This document shows positions 21,154-28,935 of a DNA stretch of 32,000 nt, piece after piece. Positions within the stretch are counted from its first letter, which is position 1; each line of letters begins with the position of its first letter. Under the pieces are notes generated by a model that was not told the DNA's origin, ran no database searches, and was given only the letters and a program-made list of their open reading frames with translations. Origin of the DNA: Candidatus Syntropharchaeum caldarium (GTDB lineage Archaea > Halobacteriota > Syntropharchaeia > Syntropharchaeales > Syntropharchaeaceae); contig LYOS01000003.1 of assembly GCA_001766815.1 (NCBI GenBank), positions 12,988 through 44,987 of the forward strand. The letters run 5' to 3'. Position numbers and translations under genes: made by a program.

Positions 21154-21855
21154 ATGGATCGGCTTACAACCGGGATAGATGGATTGGACGATATGCTGTA
21201 CGGGGGGATTCCTGTAAACCATGTTGCAGTCATTGCCGGACCTGCTGGTGCTGGAAAAACGATCGCATCTCTGCAATTTGTTCATGCAAACCTGTTAAAA
21301 GGTAAGAACTGTCTTTATATCAGTGCAGGCGAAGATCCAGAGGCGTTGCTGGCAAACACAAGATCGTTTGGGTGGGAATTTGATCGTTTCCTCGATTCTG
21401 GAGCCCTTACATTGATGAAACCGAGACTGATCGAGGTTGTCAATCTCACGTCAGACTTTCTTGAGAAGCTTCCGCATGTGGTCAAGCGATCGAATGCCGA
21501 GATCATCGTAATCGACTCGATAACCGAGTTCAACGATCTCTGCCAGACAGATATAGAACGCAGGGGGAGAGTTCTCAACCTGTATGAGGCAATAAAAGAG
21601 AGTGGAGCGACAGGAATTTTAACGGCTGAGGCAGCTGTGGACGGTAATGGAACAAGATACGGGATTGCTGATTATGTCACCGATGGCGTGATCCTCCTGA
21701 GGCGGTTACAGTCAAAGGATCTGAGTGAACTCATTCATGTCGTCCAGATCAGCAAGATGCGATGGATTCAACATTCAAAGGAGATTCGCCAGTACGAAGT
21801 TACCGAGAAGGGGATACGAGTTCATTCAAAGTACAGTGTGATATTCAGTGAATGA
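21154..21855 (+). CDS. Single-domain KaiC/ArlH-like RecA-superfamily ATPase
   Basis: TGIDGLDDMLYGGIPVNHVAVIAGPAGAGKT is a Walker A and EIIVIDS a Walker B. The SFGWEFDRFLDSGAL segment is typical of KaiC-like rather than RadA/RadB proteins. Length is 233 aa. Confidence 0.75.
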   Translation: MDRLTTGIDGLDDMLYGGIPVNHVAVIAGPAGAGKTIASLQFVHANLLKGKNCLYISAGEDPEALLANTRSFGWEFDRFLDSGALTLMKPRLIEVVNLTSDFLEKLPHVVKRSNAEIIVIDSITEFNDLCQTDIERRGRVLNLYEAIKESGATGILTAEAAVDGNGTRYGIADYVTDGVILLRRLQSKDLSELIHVVQISKMRWIQHSKEIRQYEVTEKGIRVHSKYSVIFSE

Positions 21856-22654
21856 TAGAGGGGATTTTGATTACATGATATTTGCTGATCGGGATAAAGA
21901 GCGCAAGGAAGTTGTAGAGGGTTTTCTCAAAGATGGCAGTACACTCGTCATCGGTCTGCGCTCAGCGAGGGTTGAGCGCTATTTTTACAGGCTTGCGTAT
22001 GATATTTATGAGATGAGCGATGAGATCGATGGAATTCTATGGGTCTGTTACAATGCCACCCCAACTAAGGTGAGAGAACGATTTGAATCCTACGAGATCC
22101 CGATCCCTGAGAACTTCTGGTGCATCGATATGATAAGCTCAATGATAGGGCTTCCAAAAGATGATCCACAGGTGATCTACTGCAACACACCAACTGACTA
22201 CAACTGCATCTTTCTCACAATAGACTATGTGATCAAGAAGATCGGTAGGGTGGTTGTTGCCTTTGATGATCTGAATGCTGCCCTGAGCTATGACTCGCCG
22301 GATCGACTCGTCAAGGTGCTCAGAAATCTCAATAACAGGATACCAGAGAAAGGATGTACAAGTCTGTATCTGCTTGTAGAAGGAGCTACAACGCCTGAAA
22401 CCGAGAATGCAATCCAGGCAACGATGAATGCAATATTCAGGGTCGGTGAGAAGATACAGGTTTCTTCCCCAACACGTTCGATCAGGCTTAAAAAATGGTT
22501 CAAGACATGGGAGGAGCTTGAGAAAACAACATGGAGTGATGTCTTTTCTTTCAAAGACCCGGTACTTTATATATTGTTATTGATATCGCTGGTTGTGAAC
22601 GTTTTTCTTATGATGCTCCTCTTCTATGTTGTGATGCAGCGGATCGGGATCTAA
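21848..22654 (+). CDS. Predicted inactivated KaiC-like domain protein with C-terminal TM helix
   Basis: Collinear by eye with the preceding ATPase: GSTLVIG matches AVIAG, VVVAFDDLNAAL matches IIVIDSITEF, and TSLYLLVEG matches TGILTAEA. The P-loop position reads GLRSARVER. The C-terminal helix is VLYILLLISLVVNVFLMMLLFYVV. It overlaps the upstream gene by 8 nt; ATG 21875 is an alternative start. Confidence 0.5.
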   Translation: MNDRGDFDYMIFADRDKERKEVVEGFLKDGSTLVIGLRSARVERYFYRLAYDIYEMSDEIDGILWVCYNATPTKVRERFESYEIPIPENFWCIDMISSMIGLPKDDPQVIYCNTPTDYNCIFLTIDYVIKKIGRVVVAFDDLNAALSYDSPDRLVKVLRNLNNRIPEKGCTSLYLLVEGATTPETENAIQATMNAIFRVGEKIQVSSPTRSIRLKKWFKTWEELEKTTWSDVFSFKDPVLYILLLISLVVNVFLMMLLFYVVMQRIGI

Positions 22655-23082
22655 GACCTGAATTCAATATTAGTTCCCCTTTCAAGTCCAGCCTCTCTGA
22701 TCGTCCCTGCTGGTAGTTCAATTACAAACGAGACCGGTACCTTCGATGATCTGTATCCGATAAAGGGTTTCAGGGTTGCGAGATCCAGGATTTGGAGTGA
22801 TTTATTCAGAAATAGCAGATCGATCGGAAAGAAAACGAATAACATGTGGATCCTGACAACTGTTTCCTTTTTAAACGGAAAAACGAGTGCCGTATCCTTG
22901 AACGTACGCCTTAACATCAACCCTCTCACCTTTCTGAGGTAACTGTCTGCACACTCAACGTTTTCTGCGATCACACGTCCATCCGCCTTTGTGATCAGGT
23001 TATCCCCTCCATGGCCCCAAATCCACCTATCATCGATGCTGTACCTTTCAGCGTGAGAACCGAACTCATCGCACCGATCCAC
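22651..23082 (-). CDS. DUF192-family protein
   Basis: ADSYLRKVRGLMLRR...ALVFPF...IHMLFVFFPIDLLFLN...FVIELPAGT...GLERGTNIEF follows the DUF192 pattern. The start is uncertain. The track start would overlap the upstream gene by 88 nt, and the conserved part begins near 22990. Confidence 0.6.
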   Translation of the reverse strand: MDRCDEFGSHAERYSIDDRWIWGHGGDNLITKADGRVIAENVECADSYLRKVRGLMLRRTFKDTALVFPFKKETVVRIHMLFVFFPIDLLFLNKSLQILDLATLKPFIGYRSSKVPVSFVIELPAGTIREAGLERGTNIEFRS

Positions 23083-24668
23083 ATCATTATAACAAAGTGC
23101 AGTGTTGCACCTTTGAGGCTCCCCCCTTCAACAAGTTTGATCATGATAGCAGATGCGAATGAATGTCCTACGAGAATCACCAGGAGGAGAACATTCAGTA
23201 TCGTGGGATCAAGCGTCTCCTGGAGCATGCCGCCAACAACCTCCTGAGGAAGTGATGTTGATGAGAATAGGTCCTGCATCGTCCCAACGATTCCAAGCGA
23301 AAGATAGAGTGTGACCGCAACACCCGCCGTGAGACCGTACATCACACCCACAAGACTGCTTCCTGTCTGGTATCGCTGTGTCCTCAACCCCATAATATGT
23401 ATGAAGTTATTTGAGATGATATTACCTGCGGAATCTGCCTTGCCACCCACATCGATCGACTCGATGAACATATCAGAGAAACGCTGAATCAGGCTGCTTC
23501 CGGTCTCTGCTGCAAAGTGATACCATGAGCGCATCTTGTTGACACGAATCGCCAGCCGCTGATAGAGGTTGTTGACGTCCTGAGTTAATGCCCCAAAATC
23601 ATGTGCCCTCAGATCTTTGAGCGCAACATCCACGATCCCCCCTCTTGCAGCAGCAGACGCACCCAGTGAACGGATGAAGGATGCAAAGTTATCATCCCTC
23701 CGCTTTATATCCGCCTCTGCCTTTTTGATTACATGACCTATGAGTATGAGCGGCGTGAAGACAATCGCAGCCTTGAGCTGTAGTGGAAGATCAAGTTGCA
23801 GGAGAAGAATTAAAATCAGCATTACAAGGCATCCTGTGATTGCGACAGGAATTGTTCGCTTTATCTTTTGCTCCCTCTCTGTCTCCAGATTGACCGTGTG
23901 CCAGAGTTTCTCATGAGGGGTCTTTGTATTGACAAAGAAGACCAGAACCGTTTCCATGAATATGAACATGAAGACCGTCATCATCATCATCTGTGCCGGA
24001 TCGACACCGGTTATAAGAGGCATTATGATCGCGAATGACGCCATAAATATCAGCGCCATCACCATCGAGAGGTACATCTCTTTCATCAGCTCGATCTGGT
24101 AGAGCTGTCCTCTGTATACAACGTCATACTGCTTCATCACAACCTCCTGCTCACTCGTCAGGAAAACATCCATTGCTTCACCTGCATCCATCGCGTGTGC
24201 CAATCGATCGAGAAAGTCTGAGAGAAGAAGTGAAGGAGTTCTTCTGCCGACAAACCTGCACGCCTCTGACATGCTTAAATGCCATGTATCGACCATCAGG
24301 AAGATCTTACTGATCTCGTCTGCAAGCGCCCCGTATTCCTCTTTTTTCTTGCGAAGAAGCTCAAATATACCGGTCAGTGTGAGATCAGAGGTTGCTAAAA
24401 CGCCCATGTGAGTTATGAAGTAGTGCATGTTGTTGTTGATGTCTGCCCGCTTCTTATCAACCATCATCTTTGGATAGGCAACGGTAAGGAGGGTACCAAA
24501 GAGCGGGATTAAATAGATGACCAACCTGAATATACCTTCACCAAATACATCAGGAAAAAGCAGGAGCATAACAGCCGCAAATGTGAAGCTCATCAGGATG
24601 ATGGGCGCAGCAAATCGCTTGACATACCGATCCACTGGCATATCAAAACAATCCATCGTGCTTGGCAT
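22995..24668 (-). CDS. ArlJ/PilC/TadC-like polytopic membrane platform protein (type IV filament family)
   Basis: ~557 aa with repeated blocks of cytoplasmic helical domain plus TM bundles. Its position directly after the secretion ATPase fits. I prefer the start at ATG 24668 (MPSTMDCF), which is preceded by GGTGGTG. The track start 24734 would overlap the ATPase gene. Confidence 0.7.
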   Translation of the reverse strand: MPSTMDCFDMPVDRYVKRFAAPIILMSFTFAAVMLLLFPDVFGEGIFRLVIYLIPLFGTLLTVAYPKMMVDKKRADINNNMHYFITHMGVLATSDLTLTGIFELLRKKKEEYGALADEISKIFLMVDTWHLSMSEACRFVGRRTPSLLLSDFLDRLAHAMDAGEAMDVFLTSEQEVVMKQYDVVYRGQLYQIELMKEMYLSMVMALIFMASFAIIMPLITGVDPAQMMMMTVFMFIFMETVLVFFVNTKTPHEKLWHTVNLETEREQKIKRTIPVAITGCLVMLILILLLQLDLPLQLKAAIVFTPLILIGHVIKKAEADIKRRDDNFASFIRSLGASAAARGGIVDVALKDLRAHDFGALTQDVNNLYQRLAIRVNKMRSWYHFAAETGSSLIQRFSDMFIESIDVGGKADSAGNIISNNFIHIMGLRTQRYQTGSSLVGVMYGLTAGVAVTLYLSLGIVGTMQDLFSSTSLPQEVVGGMLQETLDPTILNVLLLVILVGHSFASAIMIKLVEGGSLKGATLHFVIMMWIGAMSSVLTLKGTASMIGGFGAMEGIT

Positions 24669-24684
24669 GCACCACCACCTTTTG

Positions 24685-26337
24685 TCAGACCGAGAATGGA
24701 AGCGATTCTGGACCTTTGCGGTAGAAGTCAACAAAGATCTGGTTCACCTGATAATAATCTGTTATACCAAGTTCGAGCATTCGTTCGATTATCCTTGCCC
24801 GATACATCATATCTTCATATATCTTACGCTTATCCTCGTAACCGAGCGTTTCTGCGATTTTCTGTTCAAGAATGTATGAGTTATTCATTCCCCTGAAAAA
24901 GTGTCTGTCCATTCCCGGATCCCACTGGAATACCGCCCTTGTTACAACTCCACCTGCGTCTGCATAATACCCCTCGATCTCATCGATGGATGTGCACCTT
25001 CTCAGAAACTTTCCCTTTCGGTAAACCGCCTGCTGGATGAGAGCAATGTTAAGATTATCGATGAACGTGATCGGGACGTTGATTGGATCGCCTGTGAAAC
25101 GCTGGATCATCTTTCCCACAGATGAGGCATGGAATGTGGCGAGCACTGGATGTCCTGTCTGCATTGCCTGGAATGCGACAGCGCCTTCTGCACCCCGAAT
25201 CTCGCCCACGATGATGTAGTTGGGTCTTGACCTCAAAGCTGCTTTCAGGAGATCGAAGAGGGTTACCCGTGAGTCTTCAGGTCCCTCATCACGGGTTATC
25301 AACTGCTGCCAGATCTCATGCGGTGGAAGTACCTCTGCTGTATCCTCTGCTGTGAATATCTTTGATTGGGGCAGGATAAACGGAAGCATTGCGTTCAGTG
25401 CGGTTGTTTTACCCGATGCAGTCTCACCGCAGACAAATATACTCATACCGTTCTCAAGACAGAGCCATAGATAGCCTGCAGCCTCTGCACTCAGCGTACC
25501 CCACCCAACGAGCTGAACGATACTTATAGGTGTTGAAGAGAACTTTCTGATCGTGAAGCTTGAACCGCGCCTGCTCACATCGTTCGAGTATATCGCGTTC
25601 AGTCTTGAACCATCGGGAAGCGCACCGTCAACGATCGGATGTGCCTCTGATACGGGTCGCCCAATCCGCTCGCACATCCCGCGCAGAAATCTTGTAAGCT
25701 CGAAGTCGTCTTTGAATCTGACATTTGTTCGGGTCATATCGAAGATCTTGTGGATGATATGGATATACCCTGTACCGATCGAATGTATATCTTCGATATA
25801 TGGATCACGAATCAACGGCTCTATGACCCCGCTCCCGATGATATCACGCTCGATGAAGTACCTGATATGATCGTATTCAAGCCCGGTCATCTTGACCTTC
25901 TTTTGTTTAACGAAATTGAACTTCCGCTTCTTCTCATCTGTTTCTTCTTCCGCTTCCTCCGTTACTATCACGGACTCACGTAAGAGTTTATTTATTACCT
26001 CTCGCAATTCCTCCTCTTTCTCAGGGACGGGTTCATAAGGAGCCTTTTCAAGAACGATCTCAAGGACTTTATCATATTTTGTTTTTTCGACATCATTTAG
26101 AACAGGTTCGATTGCGTGATATTTTATCACTCCTTCTGTATCATCCAGATAAACGTGGATGAATATAGGATCGCCGACCGGATAGATGATGTTGAGTGCC
26201 TCTTTTGAGATATCTCTGCCAACCTGAACCATAAATTCTGGTAATTTCTTCTTATTCGCCTTCCAGCGCTTCAGGTATTCCCCAAGATGTGGATTATTCT
26301 TTACCGCGGTCTTGAATGTCCTATCTGTCGCTGCCAT
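24685..26337 (-). CDS. ArlI/PilB-like type II/IV secretion-family ATPase
   Basis: Walker A GETASGKTT, Walker B RPNYIIVGEIRG, His box TGHPVLATFHA, length 550 aa. A G7 Shine-Dalgarno-like run lies 4-10 nt upstream of the ATG. Confidence 0.85.
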   Translation of the reverse strand: MAATDRTFKTAVKNNPHLGEYLKRWKANKKKLPEFMVQVGRDISKEALNIIYPVGDPIFIHVYLDDTEGVIKYHAIEPVLNDVEKTKYDKVLEIVLEKAPYEPVPEKEEELREVINKLLRESVIVTEEAEEETDEKKRKFNFVKQKKVKMTGLEYDHIRYFIERDIIGSGVIEPLIRDPYIEDIHSIGTGYIHIIHKIFDMTRTNVRFKDDFELTRFLRGMCERIGRPVSEAHPIVDGALPDGSRLNAIYSNDVSRRGSSFTIRKFSSTPISIVQLVGWGTLSAEAAGYLWLCLENGMSIFVCGETASGKTTALNAMLPFILPQSKIFTAEDTAEVLPPHEIWQQLITRDEGPEDSRVTLFDLLKAALRSRPNYIIVGEIRGAEGAVAFQAMQTGHPVLATFHASSVGKMIQRFTGDPINVPITFIDNLNIALIQQAVYRKGKFLRRCTSIDEIEGYYADAGGVVTRAVFQWDPGMDRHFFRGMNNSYILEQKIAETLGYEDKRKIYEDMMYRARIIERMLELGITDYYQVNQIFVDFYRKGPESLPFSV

Positions 26338-26374
26338 TTTCCCCCCCTTTGTCCAGTGATATACATCCGTTGAG

Positions 26375-26386
26375 ATATTATAAAAA
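26375..26386 (-). promoter_or_regulatory. Candidate TATA box for the ATPase/platform/DUF192 unit
   Basis: Minus-strand TTTTTATAATAT sits ~45 nt upstream of ATG 26337, in the 72-nt gap after aglB. Confidence 0.35.
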
Positions 26387-26409
26387 GTTGGTGATTATAG
26401 ATGTGCTCT

Positions 26410-28935
26410 TTACATATTTACCTCAATCAGACCACCATCGAGCACGTCCCGCTCTGTAACCCTGACCTCACGTGTTACATTCCCGACCTCAATTGTGTAC
26501 GGACCTGTTGGCGCGGTATCGAACTGAGTCTCGCCCTCAATCGGTCCTTCGGTCGAGTATGGAAGTGTGAAATGAAACTTACCATCGTCAGCAAGCGTTG
26601 CGGGTTGTGTGTAGTTGAAGGTTCTGCCCTGGTTCGTTAAGACCTCAACCGTGACGGTGGCAAATGTCTCATTCAAGCCAGGAGAAGGAGTTACAACAAG
26701 GTCTGCGCCCTTAACGTACTCAAAGATCTTGACAAACCTGATGGGGTCGTCACCTATCGTTATCGGCATCATGCTCTTTGACTCATGGATCAATCGATAG
26801 TTCTTGAGCGGCTCAATCCTCTCAATCCACGTTCCATCCAGGATGTGTAATCGTGCTTCCATCGTTGAGTAGTACTTCTCTGTGAGCACGGTCTCATATT
26901 GTCCCTTTTCGTTTAATATTCTGCCATAATAGCCATCAGTATCACCTGCCCAGACCGTCATCGCTCCGAATTTGTTGTAGACCGCATTCCACGCATCTGC
27001 CATCATGAAGTCAGAGATCACATACCTCCCACCGAGTGCATCCATCACCTCGTTTGCTACTGTTTCGTTTCTTGTGATGAAGAAGACACATGCTCCAGGT
27101 CTATCTCCCTGATGTGGACCCCCGATCCCGGCCTGGAAGGGGTTTGCGATCGGGATCCTGTGGGCGATTCTCGTGATCCAGTGCCCGTAATCCCACCATG
27201 ACATGACACCATACGCATTCGATGGATATGGATAGTCCTCTCCCCGCGGGATATCCGGATAGAGCGTGTAATAATTAAAACTATCGGTTGCGAAGTCGGG
27301 TGTATTTTCACGCATCCATGTGAGAGATTCGTACCAGTCTGTCTGTGGACCACCTGTATATCTGGCGCTATCAAGTGCACCTGTTCTGGGCGTGAAGATC
27401 GGTGGGTAGAAGATAACGACAAAGATGATTATGAATATAAGAACAAGATCGAGATTGATGTATTTCTTCAGGAACGAGTACTTATGCGCTTTAGGCTCAT
27501 GCCGCTTCTTTGCATCTGCTTTTACAGGTTCATGCACAGTCGATGGGGCCCCGAACTCGATGAACTTCCATGCAAGAAACCCCGTCAAAAGTGCGACGTT
27601 CACAGCGTAGTATGCGGCAAACCTGTTCTGACCAAACGATGCATAGAGCATCAGAGCACTCCACGTGATCAAGAGCAGTTCCTCTCCTTTTCCACCTTTA
27701 AAAAGGAGGTTGTATACAATCCAAGCATACGCAATGAACGCGATGAAGAATGGTGTTGTAAACCAGACCCATGCTTCGCAGCCCCCAATATTTACATAAT
27801 CAGGACGATTGAGCGGGTCCGGATGGATTACAGTCATTGGATGGATCTCGGCAACCGTGAGTGAACCTGCTTTGGGTGAGAAGACATTGAACATCGCCAT
27901 CATCGAGTGATATAGATCAGGTGCGATGATACTGAAAGCAAAAAGACCAGTTCCTGCAAGGACGATGAGTACAAAAGGATATGCAGCCCGTTCAATTTCT
28001 TTCACTCTCAATAGATGTGAGATTCCAGCAAAAATTGCCACCCCGAGAATCGATGCCGCAAGCGCTGCAACGGTTCTTATATCGATCGTTGATGGGGCCA
28101 GGTATGGCAGGATCATCAAAATTGCAATCACAAATGCAGGAATTGAGATTAAAAGAAGCCATGCAAGATCCTTTCCCTTCATATGATCAATTACTGCCTG
28201 AAGCAGCAGATAGACGAGAATCACAAGGACCGAGAGCACACCACCCTTCCATGCAAGTATATATGAGCCGAGCATGATCCCTGTAAGAATTGAGTAGAAG
28301 ATCGGCTTTTTGAGATGATTAAGGTCCTTATTCAGGATGTGATCCATTGTTACGCGATCCTGTGCAGACTTTACAGCGATCACAAAGAACGCAATCACCC
28401 ATGTTGCAAAAAGCGTCTCCATCACGTGGTGATCTGTAAATCCGAGAAGTGAACGTGAGAGAAACTGCCCTGGCAGAACAGCGATGAGTGCGGCTGACAG
28501 GATGCCAACATTCCTGTTGTATATCTCCTTTCCGATGATATAGACCGGTATAACGGTGAGTGCACCAAGCACGGCAGGATAATAGGCACCTATAAGCTCC
28601 ATGAGTTCATGTGATGGTGAGCCAAGCCCTGCCACCCATATGATGAATGCAAGTATCTGATCAAAAAGGAAGGCAAACGGATGATATTGACCATGTGGAA
28701 AATATGTATAGGCATCAAAGTTGATGCGGTGTGGAAAGTGTGTAAGCGTATTTTCAACGATCCGCATATTATACCATGGATCATTCCCGCCAAACTTGAC
28801 AAAACTACCGCCAAAAACATCTGCTTTTGGGAGACAGCGTATATAAAACGCAATGCCAGTGATTATCGCAACAAGTATGCCATAGATGAACGTTATCACC
28901 GTATACTGATCTTTGAACGGATTTTGCAACTTCAA
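26410..28935 (-). CDS. aglB: Archaeal oligosaccharyltransferase AglB (STT3 family)
   Basis: N-terminal multi-TM domain with GGNDPWYNMR in the first loop, the WWDYGHWI catalytic motif, and a large C-terminal soluble domain. TTG start is preceded by GGAGTGA. The next in-frame Met would delete TM1. Confidence 0.9.
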   Translation of the reverse strand: MKLQNPFKDQYTVITFIYGILVAIITGIAFYIRCLPKADVFGGSFVKFGGNDPWYNMRIVENTLTHFPHRINFDAYTYFPHGQYHPFAFLFDQILAFIIWVAGLGSPSHELMELIGAYYPAVLGALTVIPVYIIGKEIYNRNVGILSAALIAVLPGQFLSRSLLGFTDHHVMETLFATWVIAFFVIAVKSAQDRVTMDHILNKDLNHLKKPIFYSILTGIMLGSYILAWKGGVLSVLVILVYLLLQAVIDHMKGKDLAWLLLISIPAFVIAILMILPYLAPSTIDIRTVAALAASILGVAIFAGISHLLRVKEIERAAYPFVLIVLAGTGLFAFSIIAPDLYHSMMAMFNVFSPKAGSLTVAEIHPMTVIHPDPLNRPDYVNIGGCEAWVWFTTPFFIAFIAYAWIVYNLLFKGGKGEELLLITWSALMLYASFGQNRFAAYYAVNVALLTGFLAWKFIEFGAPSTVHEPVKADAKKRHEPKAHKYSFLKKYINLDLVLIFIIIFVVIFYPPIFTPRTGALDSARYTGGPQTDWYESLTWMRENTPDFATDSFNYYTLYPDIPRGEDYPYPSNAYGVMSWWDYGHWITRIAHRIPIANPFQAGIGGPHQGDRPGACVFFITRNETVANEVMDALGGRYVISDFMMADAWNAVYNKFGAMTVWAGDTDGYYGRILNEKGQYETVLTEKYYSTMEARLHILDGTWIERIEPLKNYRLIHESKSMMPITIGDDPIRFVKIFEYVKGADLVVTPSPGLNETFATVTVEVLTNQGRTFNYTQPATLADDGKFHFTLPYSTEGPIEGETQFDTAPTGPYTIEVGNVTREVRVTERDVLDGGLIEVNM

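Follow-up and report, generated by a model that had tools for sequence, protein, structure and literature searches.

The window analysed here, meaning the whole stretch of 32,000 nucleotides (nt), covers positions 12988-44987 of contig C3 (LYOS01000003.1) in the genome assembly of the butane-oxidising archaeon Candidatus Syntropharchaeum caldarium (1.67 Mb, 10 contigs, 95.8% completeness), and its element of interest is a block of four consecutive minus-strand genes, arranged head-to-tail, which the open reading frame (ORF) listing and profile searches of the window assigned to the oligosaccharyltransferase AglB, the archaellum ATPase ArlI, the platform protein ArlJ and the DUF192 family (Table 1). 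An initial annotation of this DNA had recorded the same four co-directional genes and had noted that no pilin or archaellin, prepilin peptidase or arlC/D/E/F/G gene accompanied them. Both statements held, the second one for the entire window, where whole-genome profile searches placed no match to an archaellin, a pilin N-terminal domain, an A24 peptidase, ArlF/G/CDE or a true ArlH. For the class III subunits these searches used the hidden Markov models (HMMs) TIGR02537 and PF07790, in place of a regular expression that gave noisy output and failed to recover the archaellin of the genome. Pilins other than archaellin were found in the genome by the HMM searches with archaellin and pilin N-terminal domains, all of them outside the window. 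Misassembly of the aglB-arlI junction was considered and ruled out, since the window arrangement recurs in an independent Logan assembly and in a contig of the Joint Genome Institute (JGI): Logan assembly SRR3669912_2078 reproduces the window gene order from the cytochrome gene through S7/S12/NusA, and JGI contig L133 crosses the junction between the DUF192 gene and the KaiC-like pair at 99.4% identity.

Table 1. Coordinates of the four-gene cluster, its surroundings and the other archaellum and chemotaxis loci of the genome. Plain numbers are window positions; positions elsewhere carry the contig name (C2, C3, C5, C8).
Feature	Position	Strand	Product and context	Profile match
aglB	26410-28935	minus	841 amino acids (aa); archaeal oligosaccharyltransferase	TIGR04154, 734.5 bits (cut-off 450)
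aglB-arlI spacer	26338-26409	minus	72 nt; TATA-like box and G-run Shine-Dalgarno sequence	
arlI	24685-26337	minus	550 aa; archaellum assembly/motor ATPase	NF058587 equivalog
arlJ	22995-24668	minus	557 aa from ATG 24668; platform membrane protein	NF004704 equivalog
DUF192 (UPF0127) gene	22651-22974, or up to 23082	minus	107 or 143 aa	PF02643
KaiC-like pair	21154-22654	plus	KaiC_arch_3-like ATPase and membrane-anchored KaiC/DUF7090-like partner	
arlB (archaellin)	C3:216987-217493		unknown gene on one side, rpiA/gyrB on the other	PF01917, 116.8 bits
arlCDE fusion, arlF, arlG	C5, ~84.6-87.5 kb		fusion of 513 aa	ArlF 118.9 bits; ArlG 118.3 bits (cut-off 110)
arlH	C3:241271-241945		solitary; lysA on one side, two cytochrome genes on the other	266 bits (cut-off 215)
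A24 prepilin peptidase	C8			profile match
cheF, cheA, cheW	C2, 237-243 kb			profile matches

In profile searches the window ATPase reached 789.8 bits against the ArlI equivalog NF058587 (cut-off 550), compared with 200 bits against the next-best family, BasE, and its translation carries the Walker A box GETASGKT at residue 304, the Walker B box YIIVGE at residue 374 and the Asp box and His box patterns. The product of arlJ, which lies directly after arlI, scored 634.3 bits against the ArlJ equivalog NF004704 (cut-off 550) and combines a T2SSF domain (PF00482, 43.9 bits) with about nine hydrophobic segments. The arlJ ATG at 24668 stands 16 nt after the arlI stop codon, in agreement with the 17 nt previously annotated, and is preceded by the Shine-Dalgarno sequence GGTGGTGG; the length of 557 aa was also obtained in an independent gene call. 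Five ArlI-like ATPases are encoded in the genome, and the cut-off is passed by the window copy only, the four paralogues scoring 376-410 bits. The phylogenetic placement recommended in the initial annotation was run by maximum likelihood and paired the window protein with ArlI of Ca. Syntrophoarchaeum butanivorans (support 100/99), this pair being joined at the next node by the ArlI of a sister family, taken from a complete operon (100/100). The window ArlI is found inside the clade of ArlIs encoded in arl operons, on a short terminal branch of 0.11, and not among the four PilB-like paralogues of the same genome, which form a separate clade across long branches of 2.24 and 2.4. Because the equivalog cut-offs are exceeded and the ATPase sits deep in the ArlI clade, the pair is identified as bona fide ArlI/ArlJ and the genome's only true copy.

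The rest of the archaellum set was located elsewhere in the genome (Table 1). The archaellin ArlB has a class III-typical N-terminus, AQAGIGTLIIFIAMVLVAAVAAAVL, and three N-glycosylation sequons, and the matches to ArlB, ArlCDE, ArlF, ArlG, ArlH, ArlI, ArlJ and the A24 peptidase contain no internal stop codon. At genome level the archaellum set is complete and intact, with its operon dispersed and nothing missing; a canonical contiguous arl operon, with arlB, arlF, arlG and arlH upstream of arlI at one locus, was not found in this genome. Of the two explanations put forward in the initial annotation for the missing subunits, that of a core machine with subunits encoded elsewhere proved correct, as archaellin, arlCDE-F-G, arlH and the prepilin peptidase all lie at other loci. 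The second, a filament-independent role in secretion or uptake, was not supported, the ATPase being ArlI and the other arl loci having no arlI or arlJ of their own, which is essentially the situation that the annotation itself had named as speaking against its idea. In the chemotaxis region, a CheW-domain match at C2:239493-239876 (minus strand), in the presumed cheA region, contains one in-frame TAA that may mark a gene boundary or a disruption. Solitary arlH is followed by two co-directional multihaem cytochrome-like genes encoding 295 and 411 aa (L018:9254-12203; C3:241.3-244.2 kb). A functional link between arlH and these cytochromes was considered and rejected, their adjacency being conserved in neither of the two other genomes of the genus.

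The genus comparison comprised three Ca. Syntrophoarchaeum genomes, namely the window's genome (G000), G001 and G002; the closest named relative is Ca. Syntrophoarchaeum butanivorans BOX1, with an ArlI 84% identical to that of the window. The same four-way split was observed in all three, and in G001 and G002 arlH, arlCDE-F-G, arlB and arlI-arlJ-DUF192 stand on different contigs with unrelated flanks. At approximately 75 of 80 other ArlI loci, which span Methanoperedens, Archaeoglobi, Thermococci, Methanococci, Thermoplasmata, DHVE2 and DPANN, the genes ahead of arlI are arlH, arlG, arlF, arlCDE and arlB. Because the sister family retains a contiguous arlCDE-F-G-H-I-J order, the operon is considered to have been broken up on the Syntrophoarchaeum branch.

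Taken together, it is very likely that window positions 22651-26337 correspond to the arlI-arlJ transcription unit of an ordinary archaellum of the euryarchaeal type, to whose 3' end a DUF192 gene is attached, and that the operon has been split into four loci, the other three being arlB (C3, 217 kb), arlCDE-F-G (C5) and solitary arlH (C3, 241 kb). From what is known of these families, ArlI hexamers would dock on ArlJ and ArlH and then assemble and rotate the ArlB filament, once the A24 peptidase has processed the archaellin and the single AglB of the genome has N-glycosylated it; arlI would be transcribed from its own conserved promoter and the DUF192 gene would be co-transcribed with arlJ. 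Some points weigh against this reading. The assembly, in 10 contigs and with a completeness of 95.8%, does not fix the distances to the C5, C8 and C2 loci; expression, operon boundaries and the promoter are all deduced from the nucleotide sequence; Syntrophoarchaeum grows in consortia, and a role in swimming is assumed from gene content alone. In addition, the ATG that starts the DUF192 gene in S. butanivorans is CTG here, and the gene may start either at GTG 22974, the probable site, or at GTG 23082.

Compared with the arl/fla operon of Methanococcus, Pyrococcus and Haloferax (arlB-arlC/D/E-arlF-arlG-arlH-arlI-arlJ), all component families are present here with equivalog-level scores, the adjacency and order of arlI and arlJ are shared, and an A24 peptidase, AglB and CheF are found as well. 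The differences are that four loci take the place of one, that arlH is cut off from arlI and that a DUF192 gene follows arlJ. The genes themselves are ordinary, and what is unusual is their scattered layout. Dispersed gene sets for archaella and type IV filaments have been described in Asgard archaea (Prometheoarchaeati) and DPANN (Nanobdellati), other phyla having ordered loci (PMC13705601, PLoS Genet 2026), and DUF192 and AglB are not mentioned in that study. The sets described there resemble the present one in that only the genes for the ATPase and the platform remain adjacent, the subunits and system-specific parts being encoded elsewhere; the difference is that the present case concerns a genus of Halobacteriota whose sister family retains an ordered operon. 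The scattered layout of Asgard and DPANN archaea is thereby extended to a Halobacteriota genus, and an archaellum of euryarchaeal type can evidently stay intact after its operon is split into four units, with arlI keeping a promoter-like motif, which makes Syntrophoarchaeum a natural case for studying the co-regulation of stoichiometric motor parts that no longer share an operon. For annotation purposes, an ATPase/platform pair devoid of subunit genes should not be called an orphan or a novel secretion machine before the whole genome has been searched.

AglB has STT3 (PF02516), AglB core-like (PF22627) and AglB_L1 (PF18079) domains, shows the WWDYG motif in its translation as SWWDYGHW and belongs to the archaeosortase-associated subfamily, its gene being divergent from an adjoining gene for a PGF-CTERM multihaem cytochrome. 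It is the only STT3-family match in the genome and, because of this, is predicted to be the general oligosaccharyltransferase that must serve all N-glycoproteins. In G001, G002 and the environmental JGI contig L132, aglB lies downstream of the DUF192 gene and convergent with it, with an overlap of about 44 nt between the two 3' ends. In the window's genome the arlI-arlJ-DUF192 block is inverted relative to aglB, with breakpoints at window positions 22704 and 26390-26409 and no convincing inverted repeats at the ends of the inversion. In each of the three Syntrophoarchaeum genomes aglB borders directly on the arlIJ-DUF192 block without belonging to the arlIJ unit, and its co-direction with arlI here is attributed to a local rearrangement and not to a coupling of the two. 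Two natural arrangements of an arlJ-DUF192 sequence that is 99.4% identical occur in separate metagenome contigs: in L133 it is joined to the KaiC-like pair, which matches the window, and in L132 to the 3' end of aglB. As the breakpoint falls 53 nt inside the 3' end of the DUF192 gene, the two types diverge over roughly its final 17 codons.

The spacer between aglB and arlI contains a TATA-like box, TTTTTATAATAT, at 26375-26386, approximately 44 nt before the arlI ATG, and the G-run Shine-Dalgarno sequence at 26341-26347. The motif upstream of arlI, CTTTT(T)ATA(A/G)(T/C)ATCTCAAC followed by GGGGGG (its box abbreviated as CTTTTATA..ATCTCAAC), is conserved in the three genomes of the genus, in which the upstream neighbours differ. 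Because this motif is conserved despite the different neighbours, it most probably marks a promoter specific to arlI, which would then not be coupled to aglB in an operon. The suggestion made in the initial annotation, that direct linkage to aglB points to coupled glycosylation of the substrate, was not supported in view of the sole STT3 gene, the convergent orientation in both congeners and the separate arlI motif.

The DUF192 product matched PF02643 with 64.8 bits (cut-off 27). Its gene had been annotated as packed against, or overlapping, the 3' end of arlJ, and either description applies depending on the start chosen: the longest ORF, from GTG 23082, encodes 143 aa and overlaps arlJ by 88 nt, and the shorter one, from GTG 22974, encodes 107 aa and begins 20 nt past the arlJ stop. 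The gene probably starts at GTG 22974, because homologues measure 111-128 aa, residues 1-26 of the long ORF are disordered in its AlphaFold2 (AF2) model (predicted local distance difference test, pLDDT, <50) and an independent gene call also returned 107 aa. The product shows no sign of a signal peptide or of a membrane anchor. In a Foldseek search, the AF2 model matched 3PJY (E 5e-9, TM-score 0.68-0.74), and it superposes on 3PJY and 3M7A with TM-scores of 0.64-0.74, these being the sole structural matches, both of unknown function. The two structures, of Sinorhizobium meliloti R01717 and Novosphingobium Saro_0823 respectively, are bacterial structural-genomics entries of the DUF192/UPF0127/COG1430 family without assigned function; the predicted fold is shared with them, and the window copy is distinguished by being short, lacking a signal peptide and being packed against arlJ. 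A search of the literature on DUF192, UPF0127 and COG1430 returned no functional study.

Directly 3' of arlJ, a DUF192 gene was found in the three Syntrophoarchaeum genomes and, within the sister family, in genome G013, whose canonical arlCDE-F-G-H-I cluster stands on another contig; three of the four sister-family genomes have no DUF192 gene after arlJ. When the junctions were compared in four genomes, the DUF192 ATG of S. butanivorans was seen to overlap the arlJ stop codon (ATGA), and that of G013 to follow a GAGGTG sequence. The DUF192 gene is probably co-transcribed with arlJ. The co-occurrence test proposed in the initial annotation was run on 151 Halobacteriota genomes, the adjacency part being based on the complete phylum ArlI table. 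DUF192 was present in 44 of 92 genomes with ArlI compared with 23 of 59 without it, and same-strand adjacency of arlJ and DUF192 was confined to Syntrophoarchaeum; in G079 the DUF192 gene is convergent and three genes away. In one family, DUF192 was found in 11 of 11 genomes with no T2SSE ATPase among the matches listed, and of 39 metagenome loci, each 5 kb or longer, with relatives of this DUF192, only two contained any type IV filament gene, one of them being S. butanivorans itself. Neither the co-occurrence nor the adjacency expected of an archaellum component was thus found across lineages, adjacency being limited to Syntrophoarchaeum and G013. The earlier proposal that DUF192 is a new accessory component is therefore weakened: an adjacency to arlJ that extends beyond this genome stands, and a phylum-wide association does not. 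DUF192 is at most a lineage-specific add-on.

DUF192 may be tied independently to type IV filaments in JGI contig Ga0170573_10410641 (L131:122-9334), where a DUF192 gene is co-directional within a cluster of genes for a PilB-like ATPase and for proteins of 117, 176, 1288 and 342 aa that have N-terminal hydrophobic segments. On its other side, the DUF192 gene of the window is met by the KaiC-like pair, which converges on it with stop codons that overlap at 22651-22654. The KaiC_arch_3-like ATPase of this pair scored 177.6 bits, under its cut-off of 249, and its identification as ArlH was ruled out at 52.5 bits against a cut-off of 215.

Four other explanations were weighed against, or alongside, that of an ordinary archaellum with a dispersed operon. 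A filament-independent use of the ATPase/platform pair, in secretion or uptake, would account for the lack of any subunit gene in the window, but is extremely improbable: the genome has no other bona fide ArlI/ArlJ and needs this pair for its intact arlB, arlCDE, arlF, arlG and arlH, the short branch gives no sign of divergence from ArlI, and any other type IV filament system could draw on the four PilB-like ATPases. A functional module of aglB and arlIJ that couples archaellin glycosylation to assembly is also very unlikely. It draws on the contact between aglB and the arlIJ-DUF192 block throughout the genus, on the three sequons of the archaellin and on the requirement of AglB-dependent N-glycosylation of archaellins for archaellation in model archaea. 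However, a single inversion next to aglB preserves such contact automatically, and the side and orientation differ, aglB being co-directional and upstream here but convergent and downstream in G001, G002 and L132. Furthermore, aglB does not lie close to arl genes in the sister family and does so only seldom at the 80 ArlI loci, the conserved promoter-like motif stands between aglB and arlI, and a sole STT3 enzyme of the archaeosortase-associated subfamily, encoded beside a PGF-CTERM cytochrome, must serve all N-glycoproteins.

The two remaining proposals concern the use of the archaellum and its composition. An archaellum serving mainly as an adhesive or electron-conducting filament toward the sulfate-reducing partner, rather than for swimming, is unlikely, although multihaem cytochrome genes adjoin aglB and follow arlH in this genome, and FlaB filaments have been proposed to act in direct interspecies electron transfer in related alkane- and methane-oxidising consortia, for which high flaB expression is also reported (PMC10322722, PMC9539880). 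Against it, the components of motor, stator and switch (ArlCDE, ArlF, ArlG and ArlH) are all kept along with CheF, CheA and CheW, which fits a taxis-controlled rotation, and the arlH-cytochrome adjacency is kept in neither G001 nor G002. Since archaella have been suggested to conduct electrons in these syntrophic alkane oxidisers, their retention of a full motor and chemotaxis set is useful background in itself. Compatible with an ordinary archaellum, but itself doubtful, is the proposal that DUF192 is a true lineage-specific archaellum accessory, a small cytoplasmic beta-protein acting with ArlJ or ArlI in Syntropharchaeales. Its position directly after arlJ in the three genomes of the genus and in G013, junctions with a coupling geometry (the ATGA overlap, and GAGGTG then ATG), an arlJ adjacency that outlasted both the operon break-up and the local inversion, and one unrelated metagenome contig with DUF192 in a type IV pilus-like cluster all argue for it. 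On the other hand, DUF192 is no more frequent in Halobacteriota with ArlI than in those lacking it, its same-strand adjacency is seen in Syntrophoarchaeum only, and one family carries it throughout with no T2SSE ATPase among the matches listed. The rarity of type IV filament genes in the metagenome loci, its absence after arlJ in most sister-family genomes and a fold that matches structures of unknown function only also tell against it, and the genus and G013 are kin, possibly reflecting a single evolutionary event. A tentative scenario, with rather low chances, is that DUF192 was recruited in Syntropharchaeales as a cytoplasmic, translationally coupled partner of ArlJ and was kept through break-up and inversion; if DUF192 is indeed a partner of ArlJ, the locus would offer a first functional handle on this widespread family.

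Between the window's genome and G001, the cytochrome-aglB-arlIJ-DUF192 segment is 94-97% identical and the arlB locus 95.6%, compared with 70-80% in the flanks. Transfer of an archaellum-specific surface-structure cassette was considered as the origin of this identity and dropped, since high-identity blocks occur genome-wide in G001: in a sampling of about 190 kb, 27% of the 162 kb of aligned sequence fell in blocks of 0.5-8 kb with at least 93% identity, and the remainder averaged about 76%. Gene order in G001 is scrambled every few kb relative to the window's genome (L101, L118-L127), and the mosaic could result either from rampant recombination between co-occurring species or from a chimeric genome bin.

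Two further departures from the usual arl order were noted in other lineages. At four loci from ANME-2c and Methanosarcinales bins (L023, L026, L035 and L036), a KaiC/ArlH-like gene, arlH and arlI are followed by no arlJ, and in L035 the approximately 3 kb lying 3' of arlI hold small ORFs only; these loci represent a further break of the normally fixed arlI-arlJ pair. Tandem full-length duplicates of arlI are present in some operons of Methanoperedens and Thermoplasmata (L030, L038, L043, L054, L071, L072, L080, L083 and L094), and in the tree their copies fall into two separate conserved clades.

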